This document shows positions 17,670 through 51,507 of a stretch of DNA of 64,000 nucleotides, in pieces. This DNA comes from Desulfobacterales bacterium. Its GTDB lineage: Bacteria; Desulfobacterota; Desulfobacteria; Desulfobacterales; UBA5852. Positions within the stretch are counted from its first letter, which is position 1; each line of letters opens with the position of its first letter. Location: NCBI GenBank assembly GCA_963674755.2, contig CAXXVS010000002.1, positions 2,432,001-2,496,000 on the forward strand, written 5' to 3'. Under the pieces are notes generated by a model that was not told the DNA's origin, did not search any database, and worked only from the letters and a program-made list of their open reading frames with translations. The position numbers and the translations under genes were made by a program.

Positions 17670-17706
17670 GGGTGCACTCCCTTTTGCGACCAGTGCAAAA
17701 TCCCTC

Positions 17707-17764
17707 TTGACAATTTTTAGCAATCTATATATTAGACATTCCTAATTAGATTAAGGACTCCTAA
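17707..17764 (+). promoter_or_regulatory. Sigma70-like promoter with two DtxR-type operator boxes
   Basis: TTGACA 17707-17712, 17-bp spacer, TATTAG 17730-17735; boxes TTAGACATTCCTAA 17732-17745 and TTAAGGACTCCTAA 17751-17764. Confidence 0.75.
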
Positions 17765-17775
17765 AAAACATCGCC

Positions 17776-18327
17776 ATGGTTCCGCAACCTAAAACAAAAA
17801 GCAGCAGCAAACCCTTGACCTCAGTCATGGAAGACTATCTCGAGGCGATTTTCGACCTGGATCAGGAAAAAAAGGTCGTACGGGTCAAGGACATCGCCAA
17901 GCGGATGGATGTCAAGATGCCCTCTGTTTCAAGCATGTTGAAAACCCTGAACGATAGGGGGCTGGTGCGCTACGAAAAATATGAATATGTCGAGCTGACC
18001 AGGGACGGGGCCGACGTCGGTGAAGAAATGCGCCGTCGCCATGGTGTTCTGCATAAATTTTTAACGGAAATTTTAAAAATCGACGATGCGGTTGCCGACG
18101 AAGAGGCCTGCAAGATGGAGCACACCCTCAGTTCCGCCACCTTGGACAGCTTGATCGACTTTATGGAGTTTATCCAGACCTGTCCACGGGCGGGACAGAG
18201 CTGGCTGCAGTATTTTGAAGATTACCGGCAACACGGCCGCCGGCCGGAGGCCTGCCGCGCCCGTAGCGAAGCCTTTTCGGACGAGTTCGAAAAACAGGTG
18301 ACGCCTGCAAAGAAAAAGCCGGCATAG
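17776..18327 (+). CDS. DtxR/IdeR/MntR-family metal-dependent repressor
   Basis: MEDYLEAI, VRVKDIAKRMDVKMPSVSSML, LT..G, RRRH..L..FL, ACKMEH. Confidence 0.93.
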   Translation: MVPQPKTKSSSKPLTSVMEDYLEAIFDLDQEKKVVRVKDIAKRMDVKMPSVSSMLKTLNDRGLVRYEKYEYVELTRDGADVGEEMRRRHGVLHKFLTEILKIDDAVADEEACKMEHTLSSATLDSLIDFMEFIQTCPRAGQSWLQYFEDYRQHGRRPEACRARSEAFSDEFEKQVTPAKKKPA

Positions 18328-18395
18328 CCGGTTACAATAAAAAAGATCGGATCCCCCTTCGGCGGGGCAGCGCCGGAAACAGGGTGACCAGGATC

Positions 18396-18430
18396 CGCCC
18401 TGCCACTATCAAGTACAGGGCGGTTTTTTT
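18396..18430 (+). terminator. Intrinsic terminator after the DtxR-family gene
   Basis: CCGCCCTG-loop-CAGGGCGG followed by T7. Confidence 0.7.
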
Positions 18431-18442
18431 AGCACTTTCTTG

Positions 18443-18456
18443 TTAGACATGCCTAA
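18443..18456. promoter_or_regulatory. DtxR-type operator box
   Basis: TTAGACATGCCTAA, near-perfect palindrome, 13/14 identical to the box at 17732. Confidence 0.75.
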
Positions 18457-18499
18457 TATGCAAAGGGATTCAAAACTCATGGGGAAAGACAAGGAGGCA

Positions 18500-18772
18500 A
18501 TGATCAGCGCTTTGAGCAACAGTGTCAAGGAATTGCAGAAGGGAATTGAAACGCACTGCTGTCTGTTGGCTGCGTTGATGGAGGAGCCGCTTGATCTCAG
18601 GCGCCTGCAAACCCAGATGGAACAATGCCCCGAGCGCCAGCGGGAACGTCAATTGCGCGAGGCTCTCCAGGAGGCCATCGAGGTCATCGAGGAAACCCGG
18701 CGGTCCTTCAAATCCAAACGGCTCGAAGCCTTGCGCAAAAAACTGACTCAGGTGCTTATTGATCTGGCCTGA
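18500..18772 (+). CDS. Small helical hypothetical protein
   Basis: AAGGAGG RBS before ATG 18500; charged helical C-terminus EAIEVIEETRRSFKSKRLEALRKKL. Confidence 0.65.
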   Translation: MISALSNSVKELQKGIETHCCLLAALMEEPLDLRRLQTQMEQCPERQRERQLREALQEAIEVIEETRRSFKSKRLEALRKKLTQVLIDLA

Positions 18773-18786: not shown

Positions 18787-18879
18787 TTCGGCATGTCTTG
18801 CGGGTCCCATACCGCTGGCGGTGATGGGAAAAGTGAAGGCGTAACGCGAACGCAACCGCGCTCGGGATACGCCTTTTTT
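18787..18879 (+). ncRNA. Structured leader/attenuator motif, copy A (family not recognised)
   Basis: Box-like TTCGGCATGTCTTG, hairpin TCCCATACCGC/GCGGTGATGGGA, then AAAGTGAAGGCGTA...TACGCCTTTTTT; same architecture at 40719 and 47321. Confidence 0.6.
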
Positions 18880-18939
18880 GTTGGGAAGGGCCGACCAGGC
18901 ATGCCTGTCGAGACGCCCGAAGCAAAGGAGATAGAGACC

Positions 18940-20178
18940 ATGAATGAAAAGCAGTCCCTCAAAACCGCCTCGGATATCCCCCCGACGCCGGAGGTCGCAG
19001 CCCGAACCGTCGTCAGGCGCCTGCCCTTCTGGGAAGCGGACGAGTGCTTCAAATGCCCCGTCGTGGGCCTCTGCCTGAATCTTGCCGAACAAAAAAGGTT
19101 GCTGAGGAAAACGGGGGTGGCCGTTACGAAGCGCACCCCTTTCGAGGTCCACGAGATCCTGGTAGCCGGCGGGCATCAGGAAAACCGCCTGTCCCGGAAA
19201 GTCGATCGGATGCTCGAGCGAAAATTCGGTCCCGCAACCGCAGCCCTCTTTGCCCTCGATTCGCAAGCGTTTCTGGCGCATTTCAAGAGCGCCTTTGAAA
19301 CCGGCGATTATGCCGGCCCGGTATGGGCGGCGGCCGTCAATCCCCAGTTACCCATGGACACCAAGCGCGAAATCTTCGGTGTGATCCATATGACCATGCA
19401 CCAGCATGGGGCCGAGCATCTGCGGTTCAGGCAGAAAATTGCCCGGCAGCAGACCGAAATCGATAAGCTGCGCCAGCACCTCACGGAAACAGCCCGCGGG
19501 CACCGCGACCTGCAAAAACGGTATGAATGCCTGCACCACGCCCAGGCCGGTTTGAAGGCCGGACTGGCCATAGCCAAGCGCGAAAGCCAGCAGCTCAGGG
19601 AAGCCCTGGTCGGGCGCGACAAGGGGACTACTCTCGACCAGGAGAACCGCTGGCTCAAAGCAGAGCTGGAGGCGCTGCGCAGCCGGCTCGCGGACAAACA
19701 ATGCCTGGTAGTGGCCCTGAAGGAAAAACAGCGCCGGCTCGCGGCCGAACTCGATCGCCAGCAGGAGCTGAACGCGCATTTCAGAAAAGAGATTCAGGAG
19801 GCAATGTCCGGAGCCCTGACCTGCAAGACCTGCGATGCCCAATGCCCGGCCTACGATCTATGCCAGCGGCGTATCCTCATCGTAGGCGGCATGACGCGCA
19901 TGGAGTCTCTTTATCGCGGGCTCATCGAGGGCAGCGGCGGGATTTTCGACTATCACGACGGCTATCTGCACAAAGGCGCCCGCCACCTCGAATCACGCCT
20001 GCGGCGGGCGGACGTGGTCCTGTGCCCTGTAAGCTGCAACAGCCACAACGCCTGCTCCGTGGTCAAGAGCCTGGCCAAGAAACACAACAAGACCGTTCAC
20101 ATGCTTGCCAACTCAAGCTTGAACACCGTTTCCCGGGCCATCTGGGGCGAACAAAGCGATCAACATTCCCTGAATTGA
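18940..20178 (+). CDS. DUF2325-domain coiled-coil protein
   Basis: N-terminal FKCPVVGLCL, central coiled coil, CDAQCP, C-terminal ILIVGG...YHDG...ADVVLCPVSCNSHNAC..VK. Confidence 0.8.
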   Translation: MNEKQSLKTASDIPPTPEVAARTVVRRLPFWEADECFKCPVVGLCLNLAEQKRLLRKTGVAVTKRTPFEVHEILVAGGHQENRLSRKVDRMLERKFGPATAALFALDSQAFLAHFKSAFETGDYAGPVWAAAVNPQLPMDTKREIFGVIHMTMHQHGAEHLRFRQKIARQQTEIDKLRQHLTETARGHRDLQKRYECLHHAQAGLKAGLAIAKRESQQLREALVGRDKGTTLDQENRWLKAELEALRSRLADKQCLVVALKEKQRRLAAELDRQQELNAHFRKEIQEAMSGALTCKTCDAQCPAYDLCQRRILIVGGMTRMESLYRGLIEGSGGIFDYHDGYLHKGARHLESRLRRADVVLCPVSCNSHNACSVVKSLAKKHNKTVHMLANSSLNTVSRAIWGEQSDQHSLN

Positions 20179-20813: not shown

Positions 20814-21743
20814 ATGCCAAAACTGACACTTCCCCCTGCTGCGCCTGAAGTTTCTCCGAAACCGCCCTTGCCGCCGTATCACAGTCCCCAAAACTCCTGG
20901 TCGCTATGCCTGGAGGAGCTCTGGCTGGTGTGGAACCGCCTGAAGCTGCAAGGAACGGCCACCACCCTGCTGGGCGACCGGGACGGCGGCGATACCTGCC
21001 ACCTGCTGTTTTGCTTCGAAGGCCGTGTCCTGCTGCTGGGGTTCAAGTCCGGCACCGGCAACCCCATGGACATCGAGACCGGCCACTGCGCCCTGGTCTA
21101 CCACCCCCAGGGCTGCCGCTGCATGGCCTGTGCCGGTGAAAACGGGGCCCGGGCGGTCGAAATCCAGTTCTCGCGGCGTACCCTGCTGCGCCTGATCGGT
21201 CCCCACGGCCTGCGCAACCCCCTGATCCGTTCCAAGCATGCCAAGCGTCCCCTCGAAGCCCTGCTCAAAATCACCCCGCACATGGACCGCATTCTGCACC
21301 AGACCGAGGATCTGTTAACCGGTCACGACGCGGATACCCTCTTTCTGACTTCCAAGGCCATGGAACTCATCTGGCTGTTCGACCGCCATTTTCAGCAGCC
21401 CCGCAAGCATGGCGTCAGTCGCCGGGATCAGGAAGCCGTCCATGCCGCCCAATCCATTCTGGAGGATCGCATGACAGCCCCGCCACCCCTTGAAGAGCTG
21501 GCCGGCCAGGTCGGCATGAGCCTCTCCAAACTCAAGCAGGTCTTCCCACGGGTGTGCGGCCGGCCCCCTTATACCTATCTGCGGCAGGCCCGCATGGAGC
21601 GCGCCCTCTACCTGATCCGCAGCACCGATATGAGTGTGATCGATGTGGCCTACGAGGTGGGCTACGCCAGTCCCAGCCAATTTGCACGCGCTTTTGCCGA
21701 TCAGTTCGGTTTCACACCCTCCCAGGCACGTCACACGGCTTAG
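20814..21743 (+). CDS. AraC-family transcriptional regulator (PchR-like)
   Basis: C-terminal PPLEELAGQVGMSLSKLKQVF...RMERA...SVIDVAYEVGYASPSQFARAF. Confidence 0.88.
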   Translation: MPKLTLPPAAPEVSPKPPLPPYHSPQNSWSLCLEELWLVWNRLKLQGTATTLLGDRDGGDTCHLLFCFEGRVLLLGFKSGTGNPMDIETGHCALVYHPQGCRCMACAGENGARAVEIQFSRRTLLRLIGPHGLRNPLIRSKHAKRPLEALLKITPHMDRILHQTEDLLTGHDADTLFLTSKAMELIWLFDRHFQQPRKHGVSRRDQEAVHAAQSILEDRMTAPPPLEELAGQVGMSLSKLKQVFPRVCGRPPYTYLRQARMERALYLIRSTDMSVIDVAYEVGYASPSQFARAFADQFGFTPSQARHTA

Positions 21744-21774: not shown

Positions 21775-21810
21775 GGCCCCGGAAACCTCCTCTGGCTTCC
21801 GGGGCTTTTT
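21775..21810 (+). terminator. Intrinsic terminator after AraC gene
   Basis: GCCCCGGAA..CC / GG..TTCCGGGGC followed by T5. Confidence 0.65.
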
Positions 21811-21825: not shown

Positions 21826-21839
21826 TTAGACAACTCGAA
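21826..21839. promoter_or_regulatory. Degenerate DtxR-type box upstream of the SBP-pilin operon
   Basis: TTAGACAACTCGAA: left half identical to the boxes at 17732 and 18443; right half resembles the TTCG variant seen at 47321. Confidence 0.45.
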
Positions 21840-22207: not shown

Positions 22208-23215
22208 ATGCTGAAACAATATCGTTTTCCGGGTCGCCGGCCGCAATTCCCCTCGCCGGTCAGGATCGCAGCCCTGCTCAGCCTCCTGGCAATACTGCTC
22301 CTGCCGGCACCCGACCCCGCCCCGGCGGCTTGCCGGTCCAAGGCGCTGGTAAAGCGCCCCATCGTCGTGATCGGCGAGCCGCTGGCCGCGGTCTGCCTGC
22401 GGTTGAACATCGCTCCCCTGGCCTGGGTGGGTCGCAAGTCCCTCTGGGAGGACGGCGCACGCCTGTCCGCGGCTTCCGAGGCCCTGGGTTGCCCGGGGCG
22501 TCTTTCCGGACCCAAGGGACTGGCCATGATCAAACGCATTCGCGCGTTAGACCCCAAGGCCGTCTATATGACGCATCTCAAGTGCCGCTACCGGCCGGAT
22601 ATCGACTATCGCAAGATTCGCAAAGCCCTGCGCGCCGAGGGGATCGAACCGCGCATCATCGCTTTCGATAACGATCCCATGGCAGCGGTGCAAGAGTTCA
22701 GCGTAGCCCTTGACCGCGCGGCCGACGGCGAGAAGCTTGCCGCGAATTATGAAAAGGCCTTCCAGCGGGCCCGCACACGGTTGGCTGCCGTTCCCAAAGG
22801 CCTGCGCGTGGCCGTGGTGTCCGGCACCTTTCAGACGGCCACGGGCAAATGCTTCACCCGGCTGGAGGCGGCCGGCGGCTACAGCGACGCCTTTGTGCTG
22901 AAAGCCGCCGGGGCCGTCAACGTGGCGGCCGACATCGTGCAGAACAGCGACAAGATCGACAAGGGGCATCTCGTCCTGCGGCGGCTGGACCGGGTCCTGG
23001 CGGCCCGGCCGGATGTGATCGCCGCCACCGGGGATGCCCTCCCCGTTGCGGTGAAGGTCGCCGGCGCCCTCAGGCGTTCCGCCTCCCAGGAAGCGGCCCC
23101 GGCGGTTTTTGCCCTGCCCCTCTATGTGGGGGCCGATCCCCTGGCCTATCCCGATGTGCTCACCCGCTGGGCGGTAGCCCTCGAAGCCGCCGCCGCGGTC
23201 GGAGATCAGAAATAA
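22208..23215 (+). CDS. Periplasmic substrate-binding protein, Fe-chelate/B12-binding-like
   Basis: Signal peptide; IVVIG...L.I.P; LKAAGAVNVA; VLAARPDVI pattern typical of helical-backbone metal receptors. Confidence 0.6.
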   Translation: MLKQYRFPGRRPQFPSPVRIAALLSLLAILLLPAPDPAPAACRSKALVKRPIVVIGEPLAAVCLRLNIAPLAWVGRKSLWEDGARLSAASEALGCPGRLSGPKGLAMIKRIRALDPKAVYMTHLKCRYRPDIDYRKIRKALRAEGIEPRIIAFDNDPMAAVQEFSVALDRAADGEKLAANYEKAFQRARTRLAAVPKGLRVAVVSGTFQTATGKCFTRLEAAGGYSDAFVLKAAGAVNVAADIVQNSDKIDKGHLVLRRLDRVLAARPDVIAATGDALPVAVKVAGALRRSASQEAAPAVFALPLYVGADPLAYPDVLTRWAVALEAAAAVGDQK

Positions 23216-23320: not shown

Positions 23321-24454
23321 ATGAAACACCGAAAATGTATCTTTACGACGAACGGCTTCACCCTGCTCGAAATCCTGGTGGTGTTGACGGTCATGGGCTT
23401 TCTCATCGCCATGGTGGCCCCCCGCCTGGCCGGCCTTACCAATGATGCCAGCGGCACGGTCTGCGACACCAACAAGGGCCGAGCCCGCACCTATGTGGCG
23501 GCCTTCTACGAGAAATATGACCGTTATCCCAACGGACTCACCAATCTGGTCATGACCGACGGCACGGACCTGGCCGCCGCCAACGCCTCGGATGACGGCT
23601 ACCAGATCCCCTACTGCTCGGACGACGATCCGGAAAACGGCCCTGAAGTACTCGCCAAGGGTCACAACAAGCTCTACAAGTTCGTAATCCATCGTCTCAG
23701 TCAGGAGGAAGCCGACGAACTCAAAAGCCTGGGCCTCACCCAAGTTTACAACCTCAATGACTACGCTGCCGATGCTCCCGACCTGAACGGCGCCGCGGCC
23801 AACGGCCGTCACAACGCGGCCACAGCCTCGGACGGCGCCCGGGTCAGCAATTGGGGCAACGTCAACGCGGTCAGCGACCAGCGGCCCTCCATGGAATCCT
23901 GCACGCTTGAACAGGGTGTCGGGGTGGCCATGTGCGGCTGTGGCATCGGAGCGGTGGGCGGCACTGCCTTCACCTACGTGCAGGCGGAACGCGGGTGGGC
24001 CGAAGAAGATATCTTCGGCCGCATGGTTTTCGGTCTGGGGCCGGAATCGGAGCTGGTCACCTCGGGCATCGTCACCAACGCGGCCCACTGCCCGGGCTCC
24101 ATCCAGAACGCTGATAACTTCACCTGGGGCGGTTACTACCTGATCCTGCCGCGGCTGGAAGCCACGGTGGACCGCCTGGAAACGGCCACCTATGCCGGCT
24201 TGTGGGGCAGCGGCAGCCTCAACTACACGGCCCTGTCGTCAGACGATCTGGAGGCGGTCTCCTGGCCCAAGGGCGGAACCACGCCTTCCACCAATTATGG
24301 CATCACGGCCAACGCCGACCATTTCAAGGTGCGCAACGGCCTAGGGCTGGGGGATGCCATGGCCGTCTGGGATTTCGATACCAACCGCCAGCGCTATGAC
24401 GAGATCTGGGGTATCGACATCATGAACGCCAACCACGTGCTCAACGGCGGCTGA
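23321..24454 (+). CDS. Large type IV pilin-like protein 1 (377 aa)
   Basis: Class III signal NG|FTLLEILVVLTVMGFLIAMVAP; GGAGG RBS. Confidence 0.9.
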   Translation: MKHRKCIFTTNGFTLLEILVVLTVMGFLIAMVAPRLAGLTNDASGTVCDTNKGRARTYVAAFYEKYDRYPNGLTNLVMTDGTDLAAANASDDGYQIPYCSDDDPENGPEVLAKGHNKLYKFVIHRLSQEEADELKSLGLTQVYNLNDYAADAPDLNGAAANGRHNAATASDGARVSNWGNVNAVSDQRPSMESCTLEQGVGVAMCGCGIGAVGGTAFTYVQAERGWAEEDIFGRMVFGLGPESELVTSGIVTNAAHCPGSIQNADNFTWGGYYLILPRLEATVDRLETATYAGLWGSGSLNYTALSSDDLEAVSWPKGGTTPSTNYGITANADHFKVRNGLGLGDAMAVWDFDTNRQRYDEIWGIDIMNANHVLNGG

Positions 24455-24579
24455 CGGAAGGCCGCCCGTTTATAAAAAACAGTCGGCCCACGGAAAGGAG
24501 GTGATGGCCGGAAACCGAACCCAACGGGCCGCCCGGGGCGGTCCGCCTGTCACGGCAGGGCGCCGGAAGGAAACCTTGC

Positions 24580-24657
24580 ATTTCGCCAAAGCCAAACCCC
24601 GGGCAACCGGGGGACGGAAAGCCGCGGGTCCCGCGGGGACGGCCGGGCTGCCGGAAT
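24580..24657 (+). ncRNA. GEMM-I (c-di-GMP-I class) cyclic dinucleotide riboswitch
   Basis: AAAGCCAAACC-CCGG-GCAA-CCGG-GGGACGGAAAGCC-GCGGGTC-CCGCGGG-GACGGCCGGGCTGCCG, with P1 ATTTCG/CGGAAT. Confidence 0.88.
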
Positions 24658-24687
24658 CTCTGACAATCTGTATTTCAACCGCCTGCG

Positions 24688-24711
24688 GCGCAGACCCTGT
24701 GGCGGGGTTGC
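24688..24711 (+). promoter_or_regulatory. Pilin-leader hairpin, copy 2
   Basis: GCGCAGACCCTGTGGCGGGGTTGC, ending 43 nt before the ATG. Confidence 0.55.
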
Positions 24712-24754
24712 CGCTGCGCAAGACCATTTTTTCTACTTTAAAGGAGAGACTGCA

Positions 24755-25861
24755 ATGCAACGCCACACCAACCGTATGACCCGCAACCAAGGTTTTACCC
24801 TGCTCGAAATCCTGGTGGTCCTCACCATCATGGGTTTCCTCATCGCCATGGTGGCCCCGCGTCTGGCCGGCATCTCCAGTGAAGCCGTGGACACGGTATG
24901 CGACACCAACCAGAACCGCACCATCACGATGGTGGCCGCTTATTTTGAAAGAACCGGCAAGTTCCCCAACAAGCTGACCAACCTTGTTGCGGTGGAGGGT
25001 ACCGATTGGGATGACGCAACTTACTATACCCCGAGCGTCAGCGATGGCGACCCGGATAATGGCCAGGAAACCCTGGCCGCGGAATTCGGCGAGCGCGTCC
25101 ATCCGATGATCCACTACCTGAGCGCGGACGAAGCCCAGGAACTGGCCGACATGGGCATCAAAAAACTGTTCAACCTCAACGCCTATGACAACTTCACCAC
25201 CGACGGAACCGACCACGGCCCGGATGGAACAACGCCTATTGCCGATGCCAACCAAGGCAACCCCATGGAAGAAGTCACCCCGGATGATGTGGATTATACG
25301 ACGGGACAATTTGCCGTCATGATGTCCGGCATGGGCGTCGATTCCGCTGGCGCTTGGCAGACGGAAACCCTTACCGGCTTTGGCGAAGCCCAATTCCTAG
25401 GCCGTATCGTCCTTGGTTTCGGTCCGGAAAACGGTCTGGTCACGTCCGGTATCGTCACCAACGCGGCCCATTGCCCCGGTGGTCTGCAGAATTCCGACAA
25501 CATCACCTACAACGACTACAACCTGATCGTGCCCCGGCTGCAATCCACGGTAGATCGTTTGGACGAAACCACTCCTGAGATCACGGACCTGGCGACCTCA
25601 ATCACCGGCATCCAGTACGCGGCCTATGGGTACACCGAAAATTTTGACACGAGTAGCGGTATTACGGCGGCCACGTTTGATACCGACGGTACCGTTCTCA
25701 CCTCACCGACCGGCATAAAAACCAGGTTGATGACCTTTGGTGCCCAGGAAAACTACGAGTACTCCACCATGTGCCCCGAGGGTCATATGTATCCGGCTGA
25801 CGATTCCGATTTCTGGGCAGTCAATCCGGACAACGCTAGTTTTGTCGCTACGGACTTCTGA
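24755..25861 (+). CDS. Large acidic type IV pilin-like protein 2 (368 aa; candidate major pilin)
   Basis: QG|FTLLEILVVLTIMGFLIAMVAP; AAGGAG RBS; paralog of pilin 1 (shared TVCDTN, LTNLV, LVTSGIVTNAAHCPG, PRL..TVDRL). Confidence 0.9.
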   Translation: MQRHTNRMTRNQGFTLLEILVVLTIMGFLIAMVAPRLAGISSEAVDTVCDTNQNRTITMVAAYFERTGKFPNKLTNLVAVEGTDWDDATYYTPSVSDGDPDNGQETLAAEFGERVHPMIHYLSADEAQELADMGIKKLFNLNAYDNFTTDGTDHGPDGTTPIADANQGNPMEEVTPDDVDYTTGQFAVMMSGMGVDSAGAWQTETLTGFGEAQFLGRIVLGFGPENGLVTSGIVTNAAHCPGGLQNSDNITYNDYNLIVPRLQSTVDRLDETTPEITDLATSITGIQYAAYGYTENFDTSSGITAATFDTDGTVLTSPTGIKTRLMTFGAQENYEYSTMCPEGHMYPADDSDFWAVNPDNASFVATDF

Positions 25862-28083: not shown

Positions 28084-28153
28084 ACCGCTGAGGGAGCAGG
28101 CGCATGTTGGACGAATGGACGCGAATGGATTCTGTGCATTGAAAATCGAACGC

Positions 28154-33691: not shown

Positions 33692-33697
33692 GACACC

Positions 33698-40860: not shown

Positions 40861-40892
40861 ATGGTCACATGCCATTGGGGAAGGAGCCGAAC

Positions 40893-43581: not shown

Positions 43582-43600
43582 CAGAAGGGAGGATTGCACC

Positions 43601-43927: not shown

Positions 43928-44040
43928 AGCGGTACCTCCGGCGCACGGATCATATCCCGATCCCGAACCGAGGCGATCAGGAATGGTTGTTCACATCACC
44001 GAAAACGAGAAGACAATTCATGACGAAAGGAGTTTGTTCG

Positions 44041-44841
44041 ATGCGAAAGACAATTGCGGTAATGGCCGGTTTGCTGACCCTGGCCGTGGCGGTTCCGGCC
44101 ATGGCCCATTTCCAGATGATCTACACGCCCGAGTCGGCCCTGGATAAGGCCGGGGAAATCGACCTCAAGATGGTCTTCACCCATCCCTTCGAGGCCGGAC
44201 ACACCATGGACATGGGCCAGCCCGAGCAGTTTTTCGTGGTCCGCAAGGAGAAAAAAAGCGATCTGCTCGGCACCCTGAAGCCCATCACCTGGACCAGCCT
44301 CACCAACAGCGGGGCGGCCTACGAAACCAGCTACAAGCTGCGCGGCATGGGGGATAATGTTTTCTGCCTGGTGCCGGCCCCCTACTACGAGGCCGAAGAA
44401 GAAGTCTACATCCAGCAGATCACCAAGATGGTGGTCAACACCGCCGGTTTCCCCACCGACTGGGACGCCGAGGTCGGCCTGTCGGCGGAAATCGTTCCTC
44501 TGGACAAACCCTACGCTCTATGGACGGGAAATGTCTTCCGGGGGATCGTCAAGGGTGGCGGGAAACCGGTCCCTTATGCCGAGATCGAGGTGGAATACCT
44601 GAACCACGCCCCTATGATGGACAAGAATGCTTTCGCCGCCAAGGCCGCTGTAGAAGCGCCCCAGGACGCTTTTGTCACCATGACCATCAAGGCCGATGCA
44701 GACGGCGAATTTTCCTTCGGAATTCCCAAGGCCGGCTGGTGGGGCTTTTGCGCCCTGGGGGCCGGGCCGGTCAAGGAGCACCAGGGCAAGGAGCTTTCCC
44801 AGGACGCCGTTATCTGGGTCCAGGCCCGGGATATGAAGTAG
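44041..44841 (+). CDS. DUF4198-family periplasmic metal-uptake protein
   Basis: AMA|HFQMIY, THPF.AGH, EIVPL.KPY, GKPVPYAEIEVEY, GWWGF. Confidence 0.82.
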   Translation: MRKTIAVMAGLLTLAVAVPAMAHFQMIYTPESALDKAGEIDLKMVFTHPFEAGHTMDMGQPEQFFVVRKEKKSDLLGTLKPITWTSLTNSGAAYETSYKLRGMGDNVFCLVPAPYYEAEEEVYIQQITKMVVNTAGFPTDWDAEVGLSAEIVPLDKPYALWTGNVFRGIVKGGGKPVPYAEIEVEYLNHAPMMDKNAFAAKAAVEAPQDAFVTMTIKADADGEFSFGIPKAGWWGFCALGAGPVKEHQGKELSQDAVIWVQARDMK

Positions 44842-45169: not shown

Positions 45170-45787
45170 ATGGCGCACATTCTTATCCTTTTGGCCGGCA
45201 GTAGCTTTCTGGCGGTACTGCTTTTCAAAGGGTGGTGCCTGCGCCTTGCCGGTTACGACGTCAAAGGCCGGCCGCCTGTCTCCCGGCCGGTTTTTCTAGC
45301 CGGCAAAACCGCCATGGGTCTATTGTGGGGGCTGACTTTGTGGCGCGCTGCGGCGGCCGTGAGAATGCCCGGAGAGCCCGTGACATGGCTCCAGTATAGC
45401 GGAACCATTCTGTTTGTCGCCGGCAGCAGTGTGGCTTTAATATCTTTTGCCGCCCTCGGCCGCGAGCTGCGCTTCGGGCTTCCGAACGGTAACTGCCGTT
45501 TGAAAGCCAGCGGTATCTATAGCTGGTCACGTCACCCTATGTATACGGGCTTTTTCCTGATGGCCGGCGGGGCTGCCCTCTATGTCGGCACCCCTCTGGC
45601 GGTCGTTTGCCTGTTGGTGGCGGTGGGCATCCACCATCGTGTGGCGCTGGCCGAAGAGCGCTTTATGGCCCGGCACTTTGGCGTCGCCTGGCAAGCCTAT
45701 ACCGAAAACGTGCCGCGTTACGGCGGCCTGATCTACACGCTTCTCAAACGATCGGAGCAGGGTCACGACCAACGTCATTGGAGTTGA
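45170..45787 (+). CDS. Isoprenylcysteine carboxylmethyltransferase (ICMT/PEMT) family membrane protein
   Basis: LKASGIYSWSRHPMYTG, AEERFM..HFG..W.AY...VPRY. Confidence 0.82.
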   Translation: MAHILILLAGSSFLAVLLFKGWCLRLAGYDVKGRPPVSRPVFLAGKTAMGLLWGLTLWRAAAAVRMPGEPVTWLQYSGTILFVAGSSVALISFAALGRELRFGLPNGNCRLKASGIYSWSRHPMYTGFFLMAGGAALYVGTPLAVVCLLVAVGIHHRVALAEERFMARHFGVAWQAYTENVPRYGGLIYTLLKRSEQGHDQRHWS

Positions 45788-45816
45788 GCACCCGGCCCAT
45801 CGTTAAGGATAATGTC

Positions 45817-45993
45817 ATGGAATTGTTACTTGTCCTGCTCGTTTTCGGCGCTGCCTTTTGGTACCTATTCCGGCGCTTTCGCCGTTCCATCAGTTCCGAC
45901 AATCCGTCCTGCGCGTGCGGCGGCTGCGATGGCTGTCCGGCGCAGGGCAATCTTCACAAAGACAGGGACCGGCCGGATGCAGACCAGCGTTAA
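45817..45993 (+). CDS. FeoB-associated Cys-rich membrane protein
   Basis: Single TM followed by SCACGGCDGCP. Confidence 0.75.
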   Translation: MELLLVLLVFGAAFWYLFRRFRRSISSDNPSCACGGCDGCPAQGNLHKDRDRPDADQR

Positions 45994-46222
45994 CGCCCTT
46001 ATCGTTCAGCATACCATTGCCGGACGCATCCGCTTGCGGATTCCTTTGATTCGCCAAAGCGCTGAAATCCGCGAGCGGTGCATTTTTATGGAAACCCTGG
46101 CGCTGATGGATGGTGTGCCCGACCGGCTGATCAATCAGCTCATTATGACCGGTTTTGCCGCTTCCCTCGCAACCTGCACACGCACGTTCTATAGTCAACC
46201 GCAAAGGAGACCGCTTCCATGA
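45977..46222 (+). pseudogene. Degenerate HMA2-like domain fragment
   Basis: VQHTIAGRIRLRIP and L..MDGV resemble the start of HMA2; no downstream ATPase. Confidence 0.4.
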
Positions 46223-47247
46223 CATCCCTTCCGGTTTTGCAAACGAGTTATCAAGTCCTGCACGATATGACGGCCGGCCCGATTCGATCCCGCCTGCTGA
46301 TGGCCGGCATCGAGCTGGGTGTCTTTGATGAACTGGAGACCTTCCGCGCCGCTACTGCGGTGGCCGCCGCCATCGGGACACATAACGGCAATACCGAACG
46401 GCTTCTGAACGCTCTGGTGACGGTCGGTCTGCTGGAGAAAAGGGCGGGCCGCTTTCGCAACAGTCCGGTGGCGCAGGCCTACCTGATGCGATCCTCGGCG
46501 ACCTTTTTAGGTCCTTTCCTGGACCTGGTGGACACCATGTGCGTGACCTCCCTCGATGATCTCTGCGAACGGGTGAAGCACGGCCCGGCGACACCTTCCC
46601 CGGAAACCGATTTCAGCGCCGAGGCCCTCTGGGCGGAGGTCACCCGGGCGAGTGCCGGCTGGGTGAAAGGTTTTGTGGGCCCGCAGGTGGCGGCCATCGT
46701 CGCCGGTCTGCCCGAGTTCCCGGCGTTCCGGCGCATGCTGGATTTGGGCGGCGGCCACGGCCTGTTCGCCCTCTATTTCGTCGAGGCCCATCCGAACATG
46801 ACGGCCGTGGTGTTCGACCGCCCTGCCGTCTTGGCGGTGGCGGAGAATTTTGCCGGGGAATATGCCCTGCAAGACCGCGTGTCGATGATGGCGGGCGATT
46901 ACCTGACCGACGCCATCGGCAGCGGGTACGATTTCATCTGGGCCTGCTCCACCCTGAATTTCGCCCGCCACGATCTGGATCCCCTGACCACGAAAATCCA
47001 CGAGGCGCTGAATCCCGGCGGCGTTTTCATCAGTTTTCAGGACGGCCTGACTCACGAGCGGACTTGGCCCGCCGTTATGCTGGGGCACCTGGGCGATATG
47101 CTCCGCACGGGGCGGGACCTGGCCTTCGACCAGGGAGAAATCGGCGCGGCGGCCCTGCGCTGCGGATTCCGTTCGGTGCACTCCCGCACCATCGAACTGC
47201 CCATGGGAGCCATGGACATGGATGTCGCCCGCAAAAATTCGTTTTGA
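46219..47247 (+). CDS. SAM-dependent O-methyltransferase with dimerisation domain
   Basis: AGIELGVFDEL, RLLNALV.VGLL, MLDLGGGHG, VFDRP, AGDY, ALNPGG. Confidence 0.88.
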   Translation: MTSLPVLQTSYQVLHDMTAGPIRSRLLMAGIELGVFDELETFRAATAVAAAIGTHNGNTERLLNALVTVGLLEKRAGRFRNSPVAQAYLMRSSATFLGPFLDLVDTMCVTSLDDLCERVKHGPATPSPETDFSAEALWAEVTRASAGWVKGFVGPQVAAIVAGLPEFPAFRRMLDLGGGHGLFALYFVEAHPNMTAVVFDRPAVLAVAENFAGEYALQDRVSMMAGDYLTDAIGSGYDFIWACSTLNFARHDLDPLTTKIHEALNPGGVFISFQDGLTHERTWPAVMLGHLGDMLRTGRDLAFDQGEIGAAALRCGFRSVHSRTIELPMGAMDMDVARKNSF

Positions 47248-47258
47248 TGAAATACTGC

Positions 47259-47334
47259 TTGACAGGCAAGGAATTCCCATTGTACGGTATTTCTAAATGA
47301 ATTAGGTAATTCTATTTTATTTCGACATACCTTA
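47259..47334 (+). promoter_or_regulatory. Promoter with three DtxR-type boxes at 19-bp period
   Basis: TTGACA 47259-47264; boxes TACGGTATTTCTAA 47283, TTAGGTAATTCTAT 47302, TTCGACATACCTTA 47321. Confidence 0.7.
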
Positions 47335-47415
47335 CGTCCGGCGACCGTCTGGTGGTGCGCAGGGAAGTGAAGGCGCAAGCGATTTCGCAACTCGCGAAAT
47401 CCCTGCGCCTTTTTT
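47321..47415 (+). ncRNA. Structured leader/attenuator motif, copy C
   Basis: Hairpin TCCGGCGACC..GGTGCGCAGGGA, AAGTGAAGGCGCAAG, inner GATTTCGC/GCGAAATC, CTGCGCCTTTTTT. Confidence 0.6.
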
Positions 47416-47539
47416 AGTGCCGAAGACAGGACGGCATAACGCGACATTCCTTGCCTGATAGGCCTGACGGACGCATGCAGGCCATCAGACAGTCCCGAGC
47501 GCACTTGTTTTCAACCGAACCATTCGAAAGGAAATCGCT

Positions 47540-47926
47540 ATGGCGAAAATCGGCAAGCGCACCAAAAGCGATTGGAAAATCGGCGCCCATCCGGTCAACT
47601 CCTACAAAGCCAGGGTCCCCGATCCGGCCGTCCAGCGCAAACGCCGCACCAGCAAAGAAATTCGGCGGGTGATTGCCCGGGCCCTGAACCGGGTGCGGGA
47701 CGACGGCCGCACAGTTCTTTTGACCGCCGAAAGTTACCGGGGCCGGCCCAAACCCAAAACCATGTACCGTGTCGAACTGTTTAAACACAACTACTATGTT
47801 CTGTGCGCGCAGCAGCAGGTCATCACGCTCTTTACATCGGACATGGTGGCCGGTGACAGCCGCAAGGGTCATTTGGTTTTTCGTGACCAGGAGCCCTTCG
47901 AAGAACTTTCATCCTATTATTCATAA
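47540..47926 (+). CDS. Basic hypothetical protein
   Basis: AAGGA RBS; K/R-rich 128-aa ORF with compact gene spacing. Confidence 0.65.
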   Translation: MAKIGKRTKSDWKIGAHPVNSYKARVPDPAVQRKRRTSKEIRRVIARALNRVRDDGRTVLLTAESYRGRPKPKTMYRVELFKHNYYVLCAQQQVITLFTSDMVAGDSRKGHLVFRDQEPFEELSSYYS

Positions 47927-47980
47927 CGCCCGGGGCGACGGGAATTTCACGCCCTTCCCACCCCCACAGGGAGGTTTTCT

Positions 47981-48391
47981 TTGCATCAGGACTTTCATAT
48001 CGATTATCGCCACAGTGCGGGCAATCTGCATATCCAGCTTTCCGGCACGTTCAACCTCATGTGCGCCTGGGCGCTTTACAAAACCATCAAACAACAGAAC
48101 GCTGGCTCGGGTCGCATCTTTGTCAATACCAAGGGACTTACGAAGGTTATCACCGGCGATGCGGAGCGGTTCAAAGGATACATGGTACAGGGAAGAATGC
48201 CCCCGGACTGGCTTTATTTTAAAGGCGAGAAAGGATTGGCTATCGCACCGAACGGGAGCCGGGTACTCATTTGCAAAACACCAGACCGCAGAAGGCGTGA
48301 GCCCTTCCCGACCCTGAAACCATGCGGTTCAAAACCGCATCGCTTTTTATTACCCGATCACAAAAGGAGAAAAAGATGGGCAAAGCATTGA
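47981..48391 (+). CDS. STAS-like hypothetical protein (paralog of 20191)
   Basis: GGAGG RBS, TTG start; NLHIQLSGTFNLMCAWAL, RIFVNT, FKGEKG, IAPNGSRVL. Confidence 0.65.
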   Translation: MHQDFHIDYRHSAGNLHIQLSGTFNLMCAWALYKTIKQQNAGSGRIFVNTKGLTKVITGDAERFKGYMVQGRMPPDWLYFKGEKGLAIAPNGSRVLICKTPDRRRREPFPTLKPCGSKPHRFLLPDHKRRKRWAKH

Positions 48392-48825
48392 TTCTTTTCG
48401 GTTCCACCACCGGCAATACCGAGGATATGGCCGGCACGGTTCAAAAAGCACTGGAAGACGCCGGACTGCAAACCGTGTTGAAAAATGTCATGGAGGCTAC
48501 CGTAAACGATTTGGCCGCCGACAACGACCTGATTGTTTTGGGATGTCCCGCCTATGGTGATGACAGTATCGAGTTGCAGGAAGATTTCGAAGAATTCTAC
48601 GAACAAATGGACAGTGTCCAACTGAACGGCAAGCCCTTTGCCGTTTTTGCGCCTGGTGACAGCTCCTATGAATACTTCTGCGGTTCGGTCGACAAGCTCG
48701 AAGAAAAAATGACCGAACTCGGGGGCAAACTGGTGCAGGACGGACTGAAAATCGACGGCGACCCGGCCGACTACCAGGACGAAATCGTCGGTTGGGCCCA
48801 ATCCGTCGCCGGGGAGTTTGCGTAA
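48376..48825 (+). CDS. fld: Short-chain flavodoxin
   Basis: FGSTTGNTE, LGCPAYG, LQEDF, GDSSYEYFCGSVD, LKIDGDP. Confidence 0.95.
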   Translation: MGKALILFGSTTGNTEDMAGTVQKALEDAGLQTVLKNVMEATVNDLAADNDLIVLGCPAYGDDSIELQEDFEEFYEQMDSVQLNGKPFAVFAPGDSSYEYFCGSVDKLEEKMTELGGKLVQDGLKIDGDPADYQDEIVGWAQSVAGEFA

Positions 48826-48981
48826 CCCTCCGGATCGGCTCCGATTGCCATGGACCATAGCGGTCATCCATCCATGGCTTGCGGCCGACCCCCACGACCC
48901 GCCAGAGGCCGGCCATCCTCTCTCCCTGGAGGGATGCCGGCTTTGGCGGTGGTTATCTGCGGATAGTGGAACAAGGGGAGC

Positions 48982-49377
48982 ATGTCACCGCAGCAGCGAC
49001 AAACATATTGTACGGCCAAATATTTAAGGATGATCCTGCGGCTGGAGCGCCAGGAGGGATGCATACGTGTCAAAAACCTCGCCCGCGAGCTGGGGTTGCG
49101 CAAGGGATCGGTCAGCGGGGCTTTGAAAACCCTAAGGGAGAGGGGACTGGTCGATTACCGCCCCTACCAACCGATCCGACTGACAGAGGCGGGGCGGGAA
49201 ATGGCGGAAAAAATTGCCGGACATCATTGCATCATCGCCTGTTTTCTCAGGAAAACCCTTAGGATGTCCCCCAAGACCGCAGAAATGTCCGCTGCCCGCA
49301 TGGGATCGGTTGTGGATGAGGCGGTGGTTGCGCGTATGCGGCACTATCTGGAACGCTCTCCCACCGAAGTTTTTTAG
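48982..49377 (+). CDS. Second, divergent DtxR/MntR-family regulator
   Basis: YL..I, IRVKNLARELGLRKGSVSGALKTL, YRPYQPIRLTEAG; the ACKMEH metal motif is replaced by AARMGS. Confidence 0.75.
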   Translation: MSPQQRQTYCTAKYLRMILRLERQEGCIRVKNLARELGLRKGSVSGALKTLRERGLVDYRPYQPIRLTEAGREMAEKIAGHHCIIACFLRKTLRMSPKTAEMSAARMGSVVDEAVVARMRHYLERSPTEVF

Positions 49378-49476
49378 TAATCGCCAAACTGGCCTTAATA
49401 GGACAAAGGGGATAACACACCCAAACGACACGACAACCCTGTCTTTTGTGCCCTCGCTGGGCCTCCCGAAAGGAAA

Positions 49477-50346
49477 ATGACCATGTTTCCTCACCAGAAC
49501 TACCGGCGTTTCTTTTGCACCCTGGCCGCTTTTGTCCTTTTGGCCTTCATGCTTCCCACAGCGTCTGTGGCCCACTCCCTGTACATTCAGTCCGGCCGCC
49601 ACCAGGTGTCGGAAGGCAAAGCCTCGCCGCTTTTCTTCTGCTACGGCCACCACTTTCCGGTGGACGACGCCATCCGCCGCCAAAAGCTCGCCTATGTCCG
49701 GGTGATCGCGCCGGACGGGGTTGCCAACGAGGTTGCCCTGCGGGACGATCGGTCCCTGCACTCCTATCCCATCACCTATGAGATCCCCGGCACCTACGTC
49801 CTGACTGCCGAAACCCGTCCGGGTTATTTTGCCATGTACATCGACAATAAAGGGCGCAAGCGTCATTCCCTGAAACCGATGGACACCTTTGCCGACAAGG
49901 CCCAAGAGATCCTGTCAAGCATGCGCAGCAGCCAGTGGGCTAAAAGCTACGTCTTGTGCGGGGCATCCCCCAAGCCCTTTCCGGCCCGAGTGGGGCTCCC
50001 CCTGGAGCTCGTACCGACCCGCGACCTGTCCCAACTTAAAAAAGGCGACCGAATTGAGCTGCAGGTGTACAACGATGGCCAGCCGTACGACGGAAAGGGC
50101 TTCTGGGACGCTACCTATACGGGTTTTTCCACCGAAGCCGAGGATCTCTATATCCAGAAGACGCCCTGCGATGCCGGTCAATTCAGCGTACCCATCGATG
50201 TCAGCGGCCGCTGGTTTATCCGTTTTTACACCAAAACCCCCGCCCCCGAGGAACGCCAAAAAGAATACCTGACTGAAAAGCGCACCGCCACCCTGGTTTT
50301 CGAAGTCCGCAATGAACGCCGCAGGCCTGCGCTCGATTCGCATTGA
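49477..50346 (+). CDS. DUF4198-family periplasmic protein, copy 2
   Basis: SVA|HSLYI, CYGHHFP, QWAKSYV, GLPLELVP, GRWFI. Confidence 0.75.
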   Translation: MTMFPHQNYRRFFCTLAAFVLLAFMLPTASVAHSLYIQSGRHQVSEGKASPLFFCYGHHFPVDDAIRRQKLAYVRVIAPDGVANEVALRDDRSLHSYPITYEIPGTYVLTAETRPGYFAMYIDNKGRKRHSLKPMDTFADKAQEILSSMRSSQWAKSYVLCGASPKPFPARVGLPLELVPTRDLSQLKKGDRIELQVYNDGQPYDGKGFWDATYTGFSTEAEDLYIQKTPCDAGQFSVPIDVSGRWFIRFYTKTPAPEERQKEYLTEKRTATLVFEVRNERRRPALDSH

Positions 50347-50510
50347 CACCCATTGGTCGCCAATCGCGCCGGGTCGCATTGACCGTTACCGATGGCATTG
50401 GTATAAACAGATATTGATGCTACCAGTGGTTCGACGGGAATGTGATGGCGCGCAAACACGTATCGTTCATATTGCATTGAGTAAAACGCTGCCGGGCCGC
50501 GGGGCTAATC

Positions 50511-51086
50511 ATGCTGGCGGCCCTGTTGCTGCCCCTGCCGGCCCCGGAAGCCCATCCCCATGTATTTATCGTGCAGCGTCTGACACTTGTATTCGACGCT
50601 GAAGGACTGGGCGGAATCAAGGTCTGGTGGAAATTCGACGACATGTTCGCCAGCATGATTGCCGAGGATCATGATACGAACCGGGACGGTCGTCTGGAAG
50701 CCGAAGAGGTGCAGTCGGTAAAGGAGAATGCTTTTGCCTTCATCAAAACTTACAACTACTTCACCTTTATCCGGATCGACGGCCGACCTTTCGACGTGAA
50801 GTTCGTCAAAGACTTCAACGCCGTTCTTGAAGACAATCGTCTGGTCTACGAATTCTTTATCCCCTGCCATGTGACAGCTATCACTGCTCCCAAAAAGCTG
50901 GCCATCGTCACCTACGATCCCAACTATTACTCGGCCATTTATTTTACCCAGAAGGCCCCGGTTTCCCTGAGCGCCGCTGATGCCTATGAGGTCAAGACCG
51001 AAGTACGTGAAGATCCGGACACGTCGATCTATTATGATATGGTCCACCCCTGGGCGCTCTTCCTGGAATTTCGGAAAAGGGTATGA
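50511..51086 (+). CDS. DUF1007-family periplasmic protein
   Basis: AHPHVF, W.FDDMF, DTNRDGRLEAEE, YFTFI, YDPNYY; signal peptide is short, so the start may be eroded. Confidence 0.8.
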   Translation: MLAALLLPLPAPEAHPHVFIVQRLTLVFDAEGLGGIKVWWKFDDMFASMIAEDHDTNRDGRLEAEEVQSVKENAFAFIKTYNYFTFIRIDGRPFDVKFVKDFNAVLEDNRLVYEFFIPCHVTAITAPKKLAIVTYDPNYYSAIYFTQKAPVSLSAADAYEVKTEVREDPDTSIYYDMVHPWALFLEFRKRV

Positions 51087-51507
51087 AGCGTTTTTGGCTT
51101 GCGGCGATCATGTTGACCATCAGTGTAGCGGCGGCTGCACCCACCTGGGCTCAAAACCCTTTCACGGACAAACCGGGAATTCAGCAAAAAACACCCGCCC
51201 CCCCCATCAAGAACAAGTTCTTCGTCAAAATCGTCCTGTGGCAGCACCAATGGTCATGCTCTTTTGCCTGTCCATGGATGTGATGGTGCTGGGTCTGGTG
51301 CTGGTCGGCTGCCTGGCACTCGGCATGGCCACCACCATTTCCATCGTTGTAATCGCCGTGACCTTGGGCAAAAGCGGTCTGTTCACCCTGGTCTCCGACC
51401 AGCGGGCCCACACCATCGAAGGCATCCTGGGGCTTGTCTCCGGGGGAGCCCTTGCCGCTTTCGGGGTTGTTTTCCTTCTGGCCACCGTCCAGGCCGCCTA
51501 CTTTTGA
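51083..51507 (+). pseudogene. Internally deleted, frameshifted NicO/RcnA-like Ni/Co permease
   Basis: N-terminal piece (signal, QNPF, KIVLWQ) in one frame joins the C-terminal TMs (VMLFCLS, ALGMATTIS) in another frame near 51250; core HxxGPGHGK/PC motifs absent; follows DUF1007 as usual for this pair. Confidence 0.65.

Follow-up and report, generated by a model that had tools for sequence, protein, structure and literature searches.

Why should a type IV filament machine be encoded in the midst of iron-uptake genes, and what might such a filament do for its cell? The question is raised by a stretch of 64,000 nucleotides (nt) from a Desulfobacterales bacterium (GCA_963674755.2, contig CAXXVS010000002.1, positions 2,432,001-2,496,000 of the forward strand), which as a whole we call the window and within which coordinates are given. 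An open reading frame (ORF) listing together with Pfam, NCBIfam and Rfam family scans showed that a single co-oriented block on the + strand spans 17.7-51.5 kb of the window. It begins with a DtxR/MntR-family regulator, orf110, DUF2325, orf157, AraC, orf335 and three prepilin-type proteins, goes on with a PilN-domain protein of 542 amino acids (aa), PilO, orf163, secretin, PilT, PilB and PilC, continues after PilC with an LCM-type methyltransferase, a PpiC isomerase, orf178, a 126-aa GspG-fold protein, orf168, feoA and feoB, and ends with a small exported protein, DUF4198, methyltransferase-type and no-family genes, flavodoxin, a second DtxR-like gene, DUF4198 and DUF1007. That the pilus module in this block is a type IV filament machine, with a gene for a retraction ATPase, is certain.

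An earlier sequence-only reading of this DNA had claimed such a machine, and the ORF list and family scans placed all of its genes on the + strand where that reading had them. The protein it had called PilM-N (28037-29665, +) contains a PilN domain (24.0 bits, cut-off 22.8; weak GspL match, E 0.003), and no PilM model matched its N-terminal part at E 0.01 or better, so that the PilM name stands by position only; the true start of this protein is probably about 40 codons later because tblastn matches begin at residues 40-47. PilO (29662-30198, +; PF04350, 42.9 bits) is followed by orf163 (30214-30705, +), which keeps the same place in related loci with 24-45% identity and matched no family, and which is therefore PilP-like, as had been proposed, by position only. 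The secretin (30702-32543, +; PF00263, 115.8 bits) scored below the cut-offs of the GspD (129.1 bits, cut-off 351), PilQ (119 bits) and MshL models (TIGR02519, 101.9 bits, cut-off 250.2). The PilT-family retraction ATPase (32540-33691, +; TIGR01420, 444.1 bits, cut-off 319.1) precedes a PilB/GspE-type assembly ATPase (33698-35344, +; PF00437, 419.8 bits) with an MshEN N-terminus (PF05157, 37.7 bits, cut-off 23.1), in which the model of the MshEN cyclic di-GMP (c-di-GMP) motif just reached its cut-off (NF053729, 38.3 bits, cut-off 38). A PilC/GspF platform protein (35401-36612, +; PF00482, 201.5 bits) comes next. Behind it stands an LCM-type S-adenosylmethionine (SAM) methyltransferase (36870-37796, +; PF04072, 71.7 bits) that was unmatched in every related locus searched (tblastn, E 1e-5 or better), and in these loci the PpiC-type peptidyl-prolyl isomerase (37718-38704, +; PF13145, 62.6 bits), conserved after PilC, follows PilC directly. 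The exported no-family protein orf178 (38701-39237, +) and the no-family membrane protein orf168 (39965-40471, +), the latter after the GspG-like gene, are likewise conserved in related loci. Between them the window has a small exported protein whose mature end would start with His (39222-39533, +), a paralogue of the protein at 43601-43927 (41% identity, E 1e-18; both pairs of coordinates are approximate). His-initiated exported proteins had been claimed, and these two are there, the signal-peptide cut being read by eye; among the loci searched, the copy inside the module occurs in this genome only, and loci L092 and L093 have no gap at its place. The one prepilin peptidase gene in the genome (PF01478, C2:610265-610591) lies outside the cluster.

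The three large pilins bear out the sizes and acidity that had been read from the sequence. Pilin 1 (pil1 type, 23321-24454, +; 377 aa, isoelectric point (pI) 4.66), pilin 2 (pil2 type, 24755-25861, +; 368 aa, pI 4.07) and pilin 3 (26014-28083, +; 689 aa, pI 4.27, 12% Asp, with two GspG-like DxWG motifs) all score above the cut-offs for PF07963 and TIGR02532, the prepilin N-methylation motif, and keep the PilD motif as G or A followed by FTLLE. Alignments showed that C49, H239-C240 (in NAAHCPGG) and C340/H344 (in CPEGH) are invariant in pil2-type pilins and could form a metal site or be structural; pilin 1 has NAAHCPGS and lacks the C-terminal CPEGH motif. The structural model of pilin 2 has a predicted local distance difference test (pLDDT) score of 78.8, falling below 50 in the NAAHCPGG loop, and Foldseek gave no match to it in the PDB at E 0.001 or better. 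VIA-align over 48,161 chains returned 14 rows at Z>=2, nearly all of them pilins or pseudopilins, with a best Z of 4.0, and sequence profiles matched solved structures in the N-terminal helix only. Pilin 3 follows pilin 2 in every locus that reaches that far. The fourth subunit, which the sequence-only reading had not reported, is a leaderless 126-aa GspG-fold protein (39570-39950, +; PF08334, 32.3 bits) that starts with MVEIIRR and a hydrophobic stretch, has no GFxxxE prepilin leader and carries a DHWG...GPDG...DD signature in alignment. It has 46 homologues, nearly all of 124-127 aa, and the MVEIIRR-type N-terminus is conserved across 14 aligned ones, nearly all of exactly 126 aa; it is predicted to be the main subunit of the filament.

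The sequence-only reading knew of no characterised system of this kind. The cluster type is not new, having been named in 2012 from genome annotation: a 'Pih' pilus is annotated in Pelobacter carbinolicus and P. propionicus, with a major pilin PihA that lacks the PilD motif and a putative peptidase PihH (Aklujkar et al., 2012; PMC3543383). Table S4 of that paper lists the AraC gene Pcar_0862 and then pihD-O-P-Q-I-J-K-L-M-E-G-F-B-A-H, where pihL is a secretin, pihM a retraction ATPase and pihF a PpiC isomerase, and just upstream in P. carbinolicus it places a flavodoxin, two SAM methyltransferases, an ABC transporter with binding protein and the Fe(III) receptor cirA (PMC3543383). The window cluster is of the Pih type, a match that was made by gene type against the rows of this annotation table for Pcar_0863-0877. 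Both have the same 16-gene make-up in almost the same order, with three large pilins bearing the PilD motif, a 'biogenesis protein' at the place of orf335 (PihO position), a fused ATPase-membrane protein at that of the 542-aa protein (PihI), two small assembly proteins, an inner-membrane protein, an assembly ATPase, the isomerase (PihF), orf178 (PihB), orf168 (PihH) and a short 'major pilin' without GFxxxE that corresponds to the 126-aa GspG-fold protein (PihA); flavodoxin and SAM methyltransferases adjoin both clusters. They differ in that orf335 precedes pil1 in the window whereas pihD precedes pihO in Pelobacter, an order also seen in locus L100, and in that the window inserts the LCM methyltransferase and the small His-N-terminal protein into the module. 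The passages of the paper that deal with Pih give it no function and mention no riboswitch, 74-aa ORF or Feo link (PMC3543383). We found no other relevant paper using Pih names or Pcar locus tags, and no Pih name among the listed homologues of pilin 2, pilin 3 or the GspG-like protein.

Compared with better-known filaments, the module shares with type IVa and competence pili the prepilin motif, PilB, PilC, PilT, PilN, PilO and secretin, and with them a presumed extend-bind-retract logic. It differs in the size of its pilins (368-689 aa), whose globular parts beyond the pilin core are unmatched (Z<=4.0), in a predicted main subunit that is leaderless, in the lack of any PilM or PilP model match at E 0.01 and in a prepilin peptidase that is encoded away from the cluster. 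With the mannose-sensitive haemagglutinin (MSHA) pilus it has in common an assembly ATPase with MshEN domain and c-di-GMP motif, and a likely cyclic-dinucleotide control; it departs from MSHA in its secretin (101.9 bits against an MshL cut-off of 250), in the PilT gene within the module and in pilins that are unrelated to MshA beyond the N-terminal helix.

We then asked how widely this module and its iron-type neighbours occur. A search with pilin 2 gave 329 homologues (E 0.001 or better); the best 120 show >=47% identity over >=94% of the query, and the sources named among them are Desulfuromonas, Desulfobulbus, Desulfofustis, Desulfosarcina, Desulfotignum, Desulfomicrobium and Desulfatiferula. 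For pilin 3 there are 156 homologues at E 1e-20 or better. None of 40 relatives of the window's genome matched the pilin beyond the N-terminal helix, and the family was present in 6 of 401 genomes sampled from the phylum and 14 of 401 from the order, the window's genome included; the class of G291 offered 9 genomes for sampling. A search with the C-terminal domain among 1.84 billion clusters yielded 100 representative ones (64 at E<=1e-10, 16 at E<=1e-30). The Pih-type pilin family is small and patchy.

For the neighbourhood survey, loci (numbered with L or G) were taken from genome records (11 of 78 loci with full-length relatives), metagenome records (16 loci) and further genomes; window proteins were mapped onto them by tblastn, and unmatched ORFs of the first, genome-record set were scanned with Pfam. 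Duplicate records were merged (L015=G636; L017=G708=L104; L018=G693; L023=G554; L091/92=L102; L093/94=L107; L105=L106) and loci too short for flanks were set aside (L018-L020, L098, L101, L103, L105, L108, L109, L111-113, G714, G691, G626, G243 and G046), leaving as survey base 19 independent loci with enough flank, which are nevertheless related, so that the counts are not independent trials. The mapping showed that other Desulfobacterota conserve the module gene by gene, in the order AraC, 74-aa ORF, (orf335 and pil1), pil2, pil3, PilMN, PilO, orf163, secretin, PilT, PilB, PilC, isomerase, orf178, GspG-like gene and orf168. The feoB gene adjoins it in 6 of the 19 loci, upstream in L016, G291 and L099, downstream in the window and in L015/G636, and on both sides in G788, where both feoB genes of the genome flank the module. 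Further recurrent neighbours are a DtxR/MntR-family gene (4/19), flavodoxin (3/19), DUF2325 (6/19, and also the short contig L020) and orf110 (8/19 by tblastn), which recurs beside dtxR, feo and pilus. In 7 of the 19 loci, and also in two short contigs, the gene immediately before the pilin operon is an AraC gene. With 3 feoB genes in the 6.7 Mb of the window's genome, we estimate that a random locus in it would lie within 20 kb of feoB about 2% of the time. Because feoB adjacency in 6/19 loci far exceeds this estimate, the feo-pilus link is real and recurrent, and it is facultative. As separate observations, genes for a MoxR-like AAA ATPase and a DUF2201 (metallopeptidase/VWA-like) protein adjoin the module in L021:605-2850, L023:531-2947 and L092:8905-11175, which are loci without iron genes, and upstream of the module in L014 (4663-7305, -) lies a gene for an 880-aa protein with a cytochrome bd subunit I-like N-terminus and an MtrC/MtrF-like multiheme domain.

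Two genes stand ahead of the pilins. The Fe-chelate-type binding protein of the sequence-only reading, orf335 (22208-23215, +), had no match to Pfam PF01497 at E 0.01 or better, yet profile and fold matches support it as a class III periplasmic binding protein. A profile of five homologues matched iron/siderophore (E 2.3e-6) and hemin (E 1.6e-5) binding proteins, Atlas features point to Peripla_BP_2 (0.95, 184 shared features), and the best Foldseek matches of its AlphaFold model (pLDDT 83) were BhuT and RhuT (E 3.8e-13, probability 1.00, TM 0.68-0.70), followed by ShuT, HmuT and IsdE and then by siderophore binders and BtuF. By the fold of this model, orf335 is a heme/siderophore-type periplasmic binding protein. 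It resembles BhuT, RhuT, ShuT and HmuT in fold (Foldseek E 3.8e-13 to 1e-9, TM 0.65-0.70) but has only 14-21% identity to them, has no adjoining ABC permease or ATPase and is encoded between pilin genes, directly adjoining a pil1-type pilin in all five loci that have orf335 (window, L016, L091, L100 and L133); locus L130 (G624) has a pil1-type pilin and no orf335 match. Ahead of orf335 lies the 74-aa ORF (P0121, 21951-22175, +; no Pfam/NCBIfam match), which the sequence-only reading did not include. In other genomes no companion of the pilins is more constant: with tblastn E values of 1e-16 to 3e-26 it was found upstream of the pilin in L013-L017, L020, L021, L023, L093 and L095, likewise upstream in L099, L100, L103 and L105 and after orf168 in L092; the ORF is also present in L129, L132, L133, L135/136 and L139.

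A candidate operator, the palindrome TTAG-N6-CTAA, precedes the pilin operon, dtxR and feoA in several lineages. Exact copies lie between a TTGACA/TATATA promoter-like stretch and the gene of the DtxR/MntR-family regulator, dtxR1 (17732-17745, TTAGACATTCCTAA), after a hairpin with a T-run and before orf110 (18443-18456, TTAGACATGCCTAA), and downstream of a TTGACA hexamer before feoA (40700-40713, TTAGGGTTATCTAA), which makes three in the window against 0.12 expected; the first is the top genome-wide score of a weight matrix partly built from the same site. A copy with one mismatch (21826-21839, TTAGACAACTCGAA, with the flank TTTGGCTT) stands after the terminator-like hairpin at 21790-21804 behind araC and ahead of the 74-aa ORF, orf335 (382 nt away) and the pilins, and is predicted to be the control site of the pilin operon. 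At the equivalent place, 550-1000 nt upstream of the pilin, exact palindromes occur in L015, L017, L020, L093, L099 and L100. Across 386 kb of related loci, with duplicates removed, the exact palindrome occurs 13 times, and a crude ORF call puts 11 of these copies between genes. The 13 include copies before dtxR (L015, L093), feoA/B (L016, L094), DUF2325 (L017) and AraC (L105); one is at an unrelated place (L092). Two copies with two mismatches precede orf128 in the window (47302 and 47321). Because the palindrome precedes dtxR itself in three lineages, we infer that the DtxR/MntR-family protein binds it, and the neighbouring genes suggest iron as the signal of this regulator. Elsewhere in the genome, near-matches were seen at C3:1591460, upstream of a second feoB copy (TTAGGATAGCCAAA), and at C3:2409328, inside a region with three TonB-dependent receptor genes. 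DtxR/IdeR, Fur and MntR operator consensuses were tried and rejected, their best fit in intergenic regions being 13 of 19 positions, no better than the window background, as was a sigma-54 promoter reading of the TTGGC flank at the pilin-operon site, where the GG to GC spacing is unfit.

The regulator (17776-18327, +; 183 aa) had been called a DtxR repressor. It does have the DtxR/MntR-family domains (PF01325, 73.8 bits; PF02742, 70.9 bits), and MntR models (94.5 and 91.8 bits) score above the actinobacterial DtxR model (NF053665, 52.5 bits, cut-off 290), all of them below their cut-offs. Control of the island by DtxR, as the sequence-only reading had it, is something we infer, and the metal sensed could be Mn.

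A second level of control is suggested by RNA. A c-di-GMP-I-GGC riboswitch aptamer (24582-24656, +; RF03167, 66.1 bits, gathering score 59, E 2e-13), which the sequence-only reading did not see, lies in the leader of pilin 2, 100 nt ahead of the gene. With a covariance model built from five aptamers and used to find further copies, others were located 100-250 nt before the pil2-type gene in L099, L100, L103 and L105, with a cut copy in G714, and GEMM-I-type aptamers precede the pilin in 9 of the 25 loci with upstream sequence. The fold of the pilin 2 leader (24578-24760) is no better than that of shuffles (z -0.14) and shows no clear terminator; a terminator scan of this leader flagged none. 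Genome-wide there are 18 GEMM-I-type aptamers (for example C2:1884361-1884435, C1:249680-249754 and C2:461695-461780), of which 12 exceed the GGC cut-off, and the genes after the other 17 include those for five PEP-CTERM proteins, a DegQ-like protease, an M23 peptidase, a NERD protein, a 5'-nucleotidase-like protein, a sigma-54 activator and a sensor kinase. A further stretch of the window (57820-57893, -) matched the five-aptamer model weakly (19.6 bits, E 0.012) and is not in Rfam at gathering score. GEMM-I riboswitches reportedly stand before pilus and cytochrome genes in Geobacter, and a GGC variant of GEMM-I is said to have been described; to our knowledge the ligand of that variant is not established. 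The likeness to Geobacter lies in a same-clan aptamer ahead of a pilus gene and in many copies in one Desulfobacterota genome (18 here), and the difference in the variant class RF03167. No paper tying the c-di-GMP-I-GGC family to pili was found by titles, and one consulted paper used the family as a structure template.

The remaining neighbours agree with those listed in the sequence-only reading, which had feoAB, two DUF4198 genes, flavodoxin, DUF1007, DUF2325 and AraC around the pilus. After the regulator come orf110 (18440-18772, +; no Pfam/NCBIfam match), whose start is likely the ATG at 18500 behind AAGGAGG, giving about 90 aa, a 461-aa DUF2325 protein with a coiled-coil N-terminal part (18793-20178, +; PF10087, 87.1 bits), for which we found no relevant paper by title, and the AraC-family regulator (20814-21743, +; PF12833, 82.9 bits). 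Downstream of the module, feoA and feoB (40725-43581, +; PF04023, 73.4 bits; TIGR00437, 471.9 bits, cut-off 315.65) are followed by the His-N-terminal small periplasmic protein and DUF4198 (43601-44841, +; PF10670, 191.9 bits). The trio of FeoB, small His-N-terminal protein (about 108 aa, no family) and DUF4198 occurs in three lineages (window 41080-44841, L099:2-2644 and L140:9170-13430). The tail of the island (45170-51507, +) consists of a PEMT/ICMT-type methyltransferase, orf136, a helix-turn-helix O-methyltransferase, orf128, flavodoxin (TIGR01753, 144 bits, cut-off 123), a second DtxR-like gene (48982-49377) absent from the sequence-only reading, DUF4198, DUF1007 and orf175. The ORFs of DUF1007 and orf175 (50511-51507) overlap in different frames; the two recur together beside dtxR in L125:5796-7198 and so probably form a true gene pair belonging to a metal transport system. 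As had been claimed, no TonB receptor, ExbBD or siderophore synthetase was found among the window ORFs scanned; 3 TonB-dependent receptors are encoded elsewhere in the same genome. The block is bounded upstream by the housekeeping genes EF-G, ParAB and LytB, the last as a 580-aa ORF (15927-17669, +) in which a LytB (IspH) domain is joined to a UbiA prenyltransferase domain, and at the end of the island by genes on the opposite strand for a ChrA chromate transporter, a major facilitator superfamily protein and ChrB (51533-55207, -).

What, then, might the pilus do? Because iron-uptake genes adjoin the module here and in about a third of its relatives, the pilus may help the iron supply, and the reading we hold the likeliest of those considered, though short of probable, is that a Pih-type pilus is co-regulated with Feo, gated by a cyclic dinucleotide, and helps the cell to reach extracellular iron. 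The DtxR/MntR-family protein would bind the sites before dtxR, orf110-DUF2325-araC, feoA and, with one mismatch, the pilin operon, and when metal is scarce AraC and the pilin operon would be expressed, with the riboswitch and the MshEN domain of PilB adding a second-messenger gate. PilB would extend the filament and PilT would draw it back through the secretin, and contact with a mineral-bound or chelated iron source would make iron available to the periplasmic binding protein and FeoAB. Type IV pilins have been linked to iron before: in Synechocystis, pilA1 helps growth on iron oxides (PMC4144903), and in Legionella pneumophila PilA2 promotes low-iron growth by a pathway apart from FeoB and the siderophore route (PMC13170364). 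Those are ordinary major pilins of standard type IV pili, for which the parts of these papers that bear on iron report no feo or metalloregulator link, and the effects there were seen in growth, whereas the iron role here is drawn from genomic evidence.

Several points weigh against this reading. The sequence-only reading had proposed surveying pilin homologues for feoB and DtxR, and the survey found, beside the six loci with feoB, 8 of 19 without any iron-type gene sought in the flanks examined (L013, L014, L021, L022, G214, G269, G624 and L110), some of which keep only the AraC gene; this outcome does not refute the iron link. A FeoB family search in 17 genomes placed feoB on the pilus contig in G291, G636 and G788 and on another contig in 6 genomes whose pilus contig is >=43.7 kb. 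The palindrome core has 8 specified bases only and thus little information, its 15 exact copies genome-wide (4.7 expected) give a ratio like that of other AT-rich palindromes, the 12 exact copies outside the window do not adjoin iron-uptake genes, AT-rich intergenic DNA inflates the intergenic count, and the window's own pilin-operon copy has a mismatch. The regulator is nearer to MntR than to actinobacterial DtxR models, so that its metal may be Mn; the genes after the other 17 riboswitches are a surface/biofilm-type set and not an iron set; the Cys/His motifs of pil2 could be purely structural; and the iron role of the Legionella pilin needed neither PilT nor PilD (PMC13170364).

Part of this evidence would suit a second-messenger-controlled adhesion or biofilm pilus of MSHA-like logic, made for surface attachment when cyclic-dinucleotide levels, sensed by the riboswitch and the MshEN domain of PilB, call for it; the iron genes would then be neighbours, or iron one more environmental cue, and no iron would be moved. 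The RF03167 riboswitch, the aptamers before the pilin in other loci, the MshEN motif of PilB that reaches its cut-off, the PEP-CTERM proteins, DegQ-like protease and M23 peptidase behind the genome's other aptamers, and the loci without iron-type neighbours all speak for it. We nevertheless consider it rather doubtful, given that feoB adjoins the module in different arrangements and far above the chance estimate, that a heme/siderophore-type binding protein sits inside the pilin operon, that a Feo-linked periplasmic paralogue has been inserted in the module and that the palindrome is common to the pilin operon, dtxR and feoA. An unlikely view is that the machine resembles a type II secretion system (T2SS), the leaderless GspG-like protein and the large pilins making up a periplasmic pseudopilus that would push a folded, perhaps iron-scavenging or mineral-attacking, protein through the secretin. 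Among NCBIfam models, those scoring best are indeed GspE for PilB (490.6 bits), GspF for PilC (326.2 bits) and GspD for the secretin (129.1 bits), the 126-aa subunit has the PF08334 GspG fold with its signature, a PpiC-type foldase is part of the module, and in D. ferrophilus, likened to the window by description only, pseudopilin genes beside T2SS-like genes are needed for short straight filaments. All the Gsp equivalog scores, however, are below their cut-offs (630 for GspE, 424 for GspF, and 88.85 for GspG, whose model gave 31.6-36.5 bits), no GspC, GspH-K or GspL/M model scored above threshold among the module proteins in the Pfam/NCBIfam scans, no candidate substrate was identified, and a PilT-family ATPase gene is present in 20 of 20 independent loci that reach its position, whereas T2SS lack one.

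Improbable, and more so than a secretion machine, is a filament that exchanges electrons with minerals outside the cell, be it a conductive pilus or, as proposed for Geobacter, a pseudopilus that places cytochromes on the surface; the linkage of the iron genes would then follow from the release of Fe(II) by Fe(III) reduction. Geobacter geopilin domain 1 is the nearest match to the N-terminal helix of pil2 (E 2.2e-8), the named carriers are metal- and sulfate-reducing Desulfobacterota, and a multiheme MtrC-like protein is encoded upstream in L014. Against this stand pilins six times longer than geopilin, the lack of any cytochrome gene conserved beside the module in the surveyed loci, and aromatic gaps of 27-42 residues in all four subunits, which exceed the 22-residue limit given for e-pilins (bioRxiv 10.1101/668343) and led us to reject a conductive pilin.

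Within the iron-supply reading, the Asp-rich capture-and-retraction mechanism of the sequence-only reading survives only in its boldest version, which we hold unlikely: by analogy with the competence pilus for DNA, Pih would be an iron uptake pilus and a TonB-free route of import across the outer membrane. In this version, derepressed at low metal and licensed by the cyclic dinucleotide, the Cys/His-bearing acidic pilins would bind an iron-bearing ligand or mineral particle, PilT would pull it through the secretin, orf335 would act as periplasmic catcher, as ComEA does for DNA, and FeoAB with its small His-N-terminal and DUF4198 partners would take Fe(II) across the inner membrane.

Little is understood of the ways in which anaerobes in sulfidic sediments draw iron from insoluble FeS and oxides, and siderophore systems are few in many of these organisms. 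For such an iron supply, a pilus cluster accompanied by feoAB, a metalloregulator, flavodoxin and a heme/siderophore-type binding protein is a concrete candidate, and its carriers include cultured genera. The cluster also gives the orphan GGC riboswitch variant a defined target gene within a large, unexplored cyclic-dinucleotide RNA regulon of this genome, and suggests a filament with a predicted main subunit that lacks a prepilin leader. If the iron-supply reading is true, iron supply would join the functions already known for type IV filaments.

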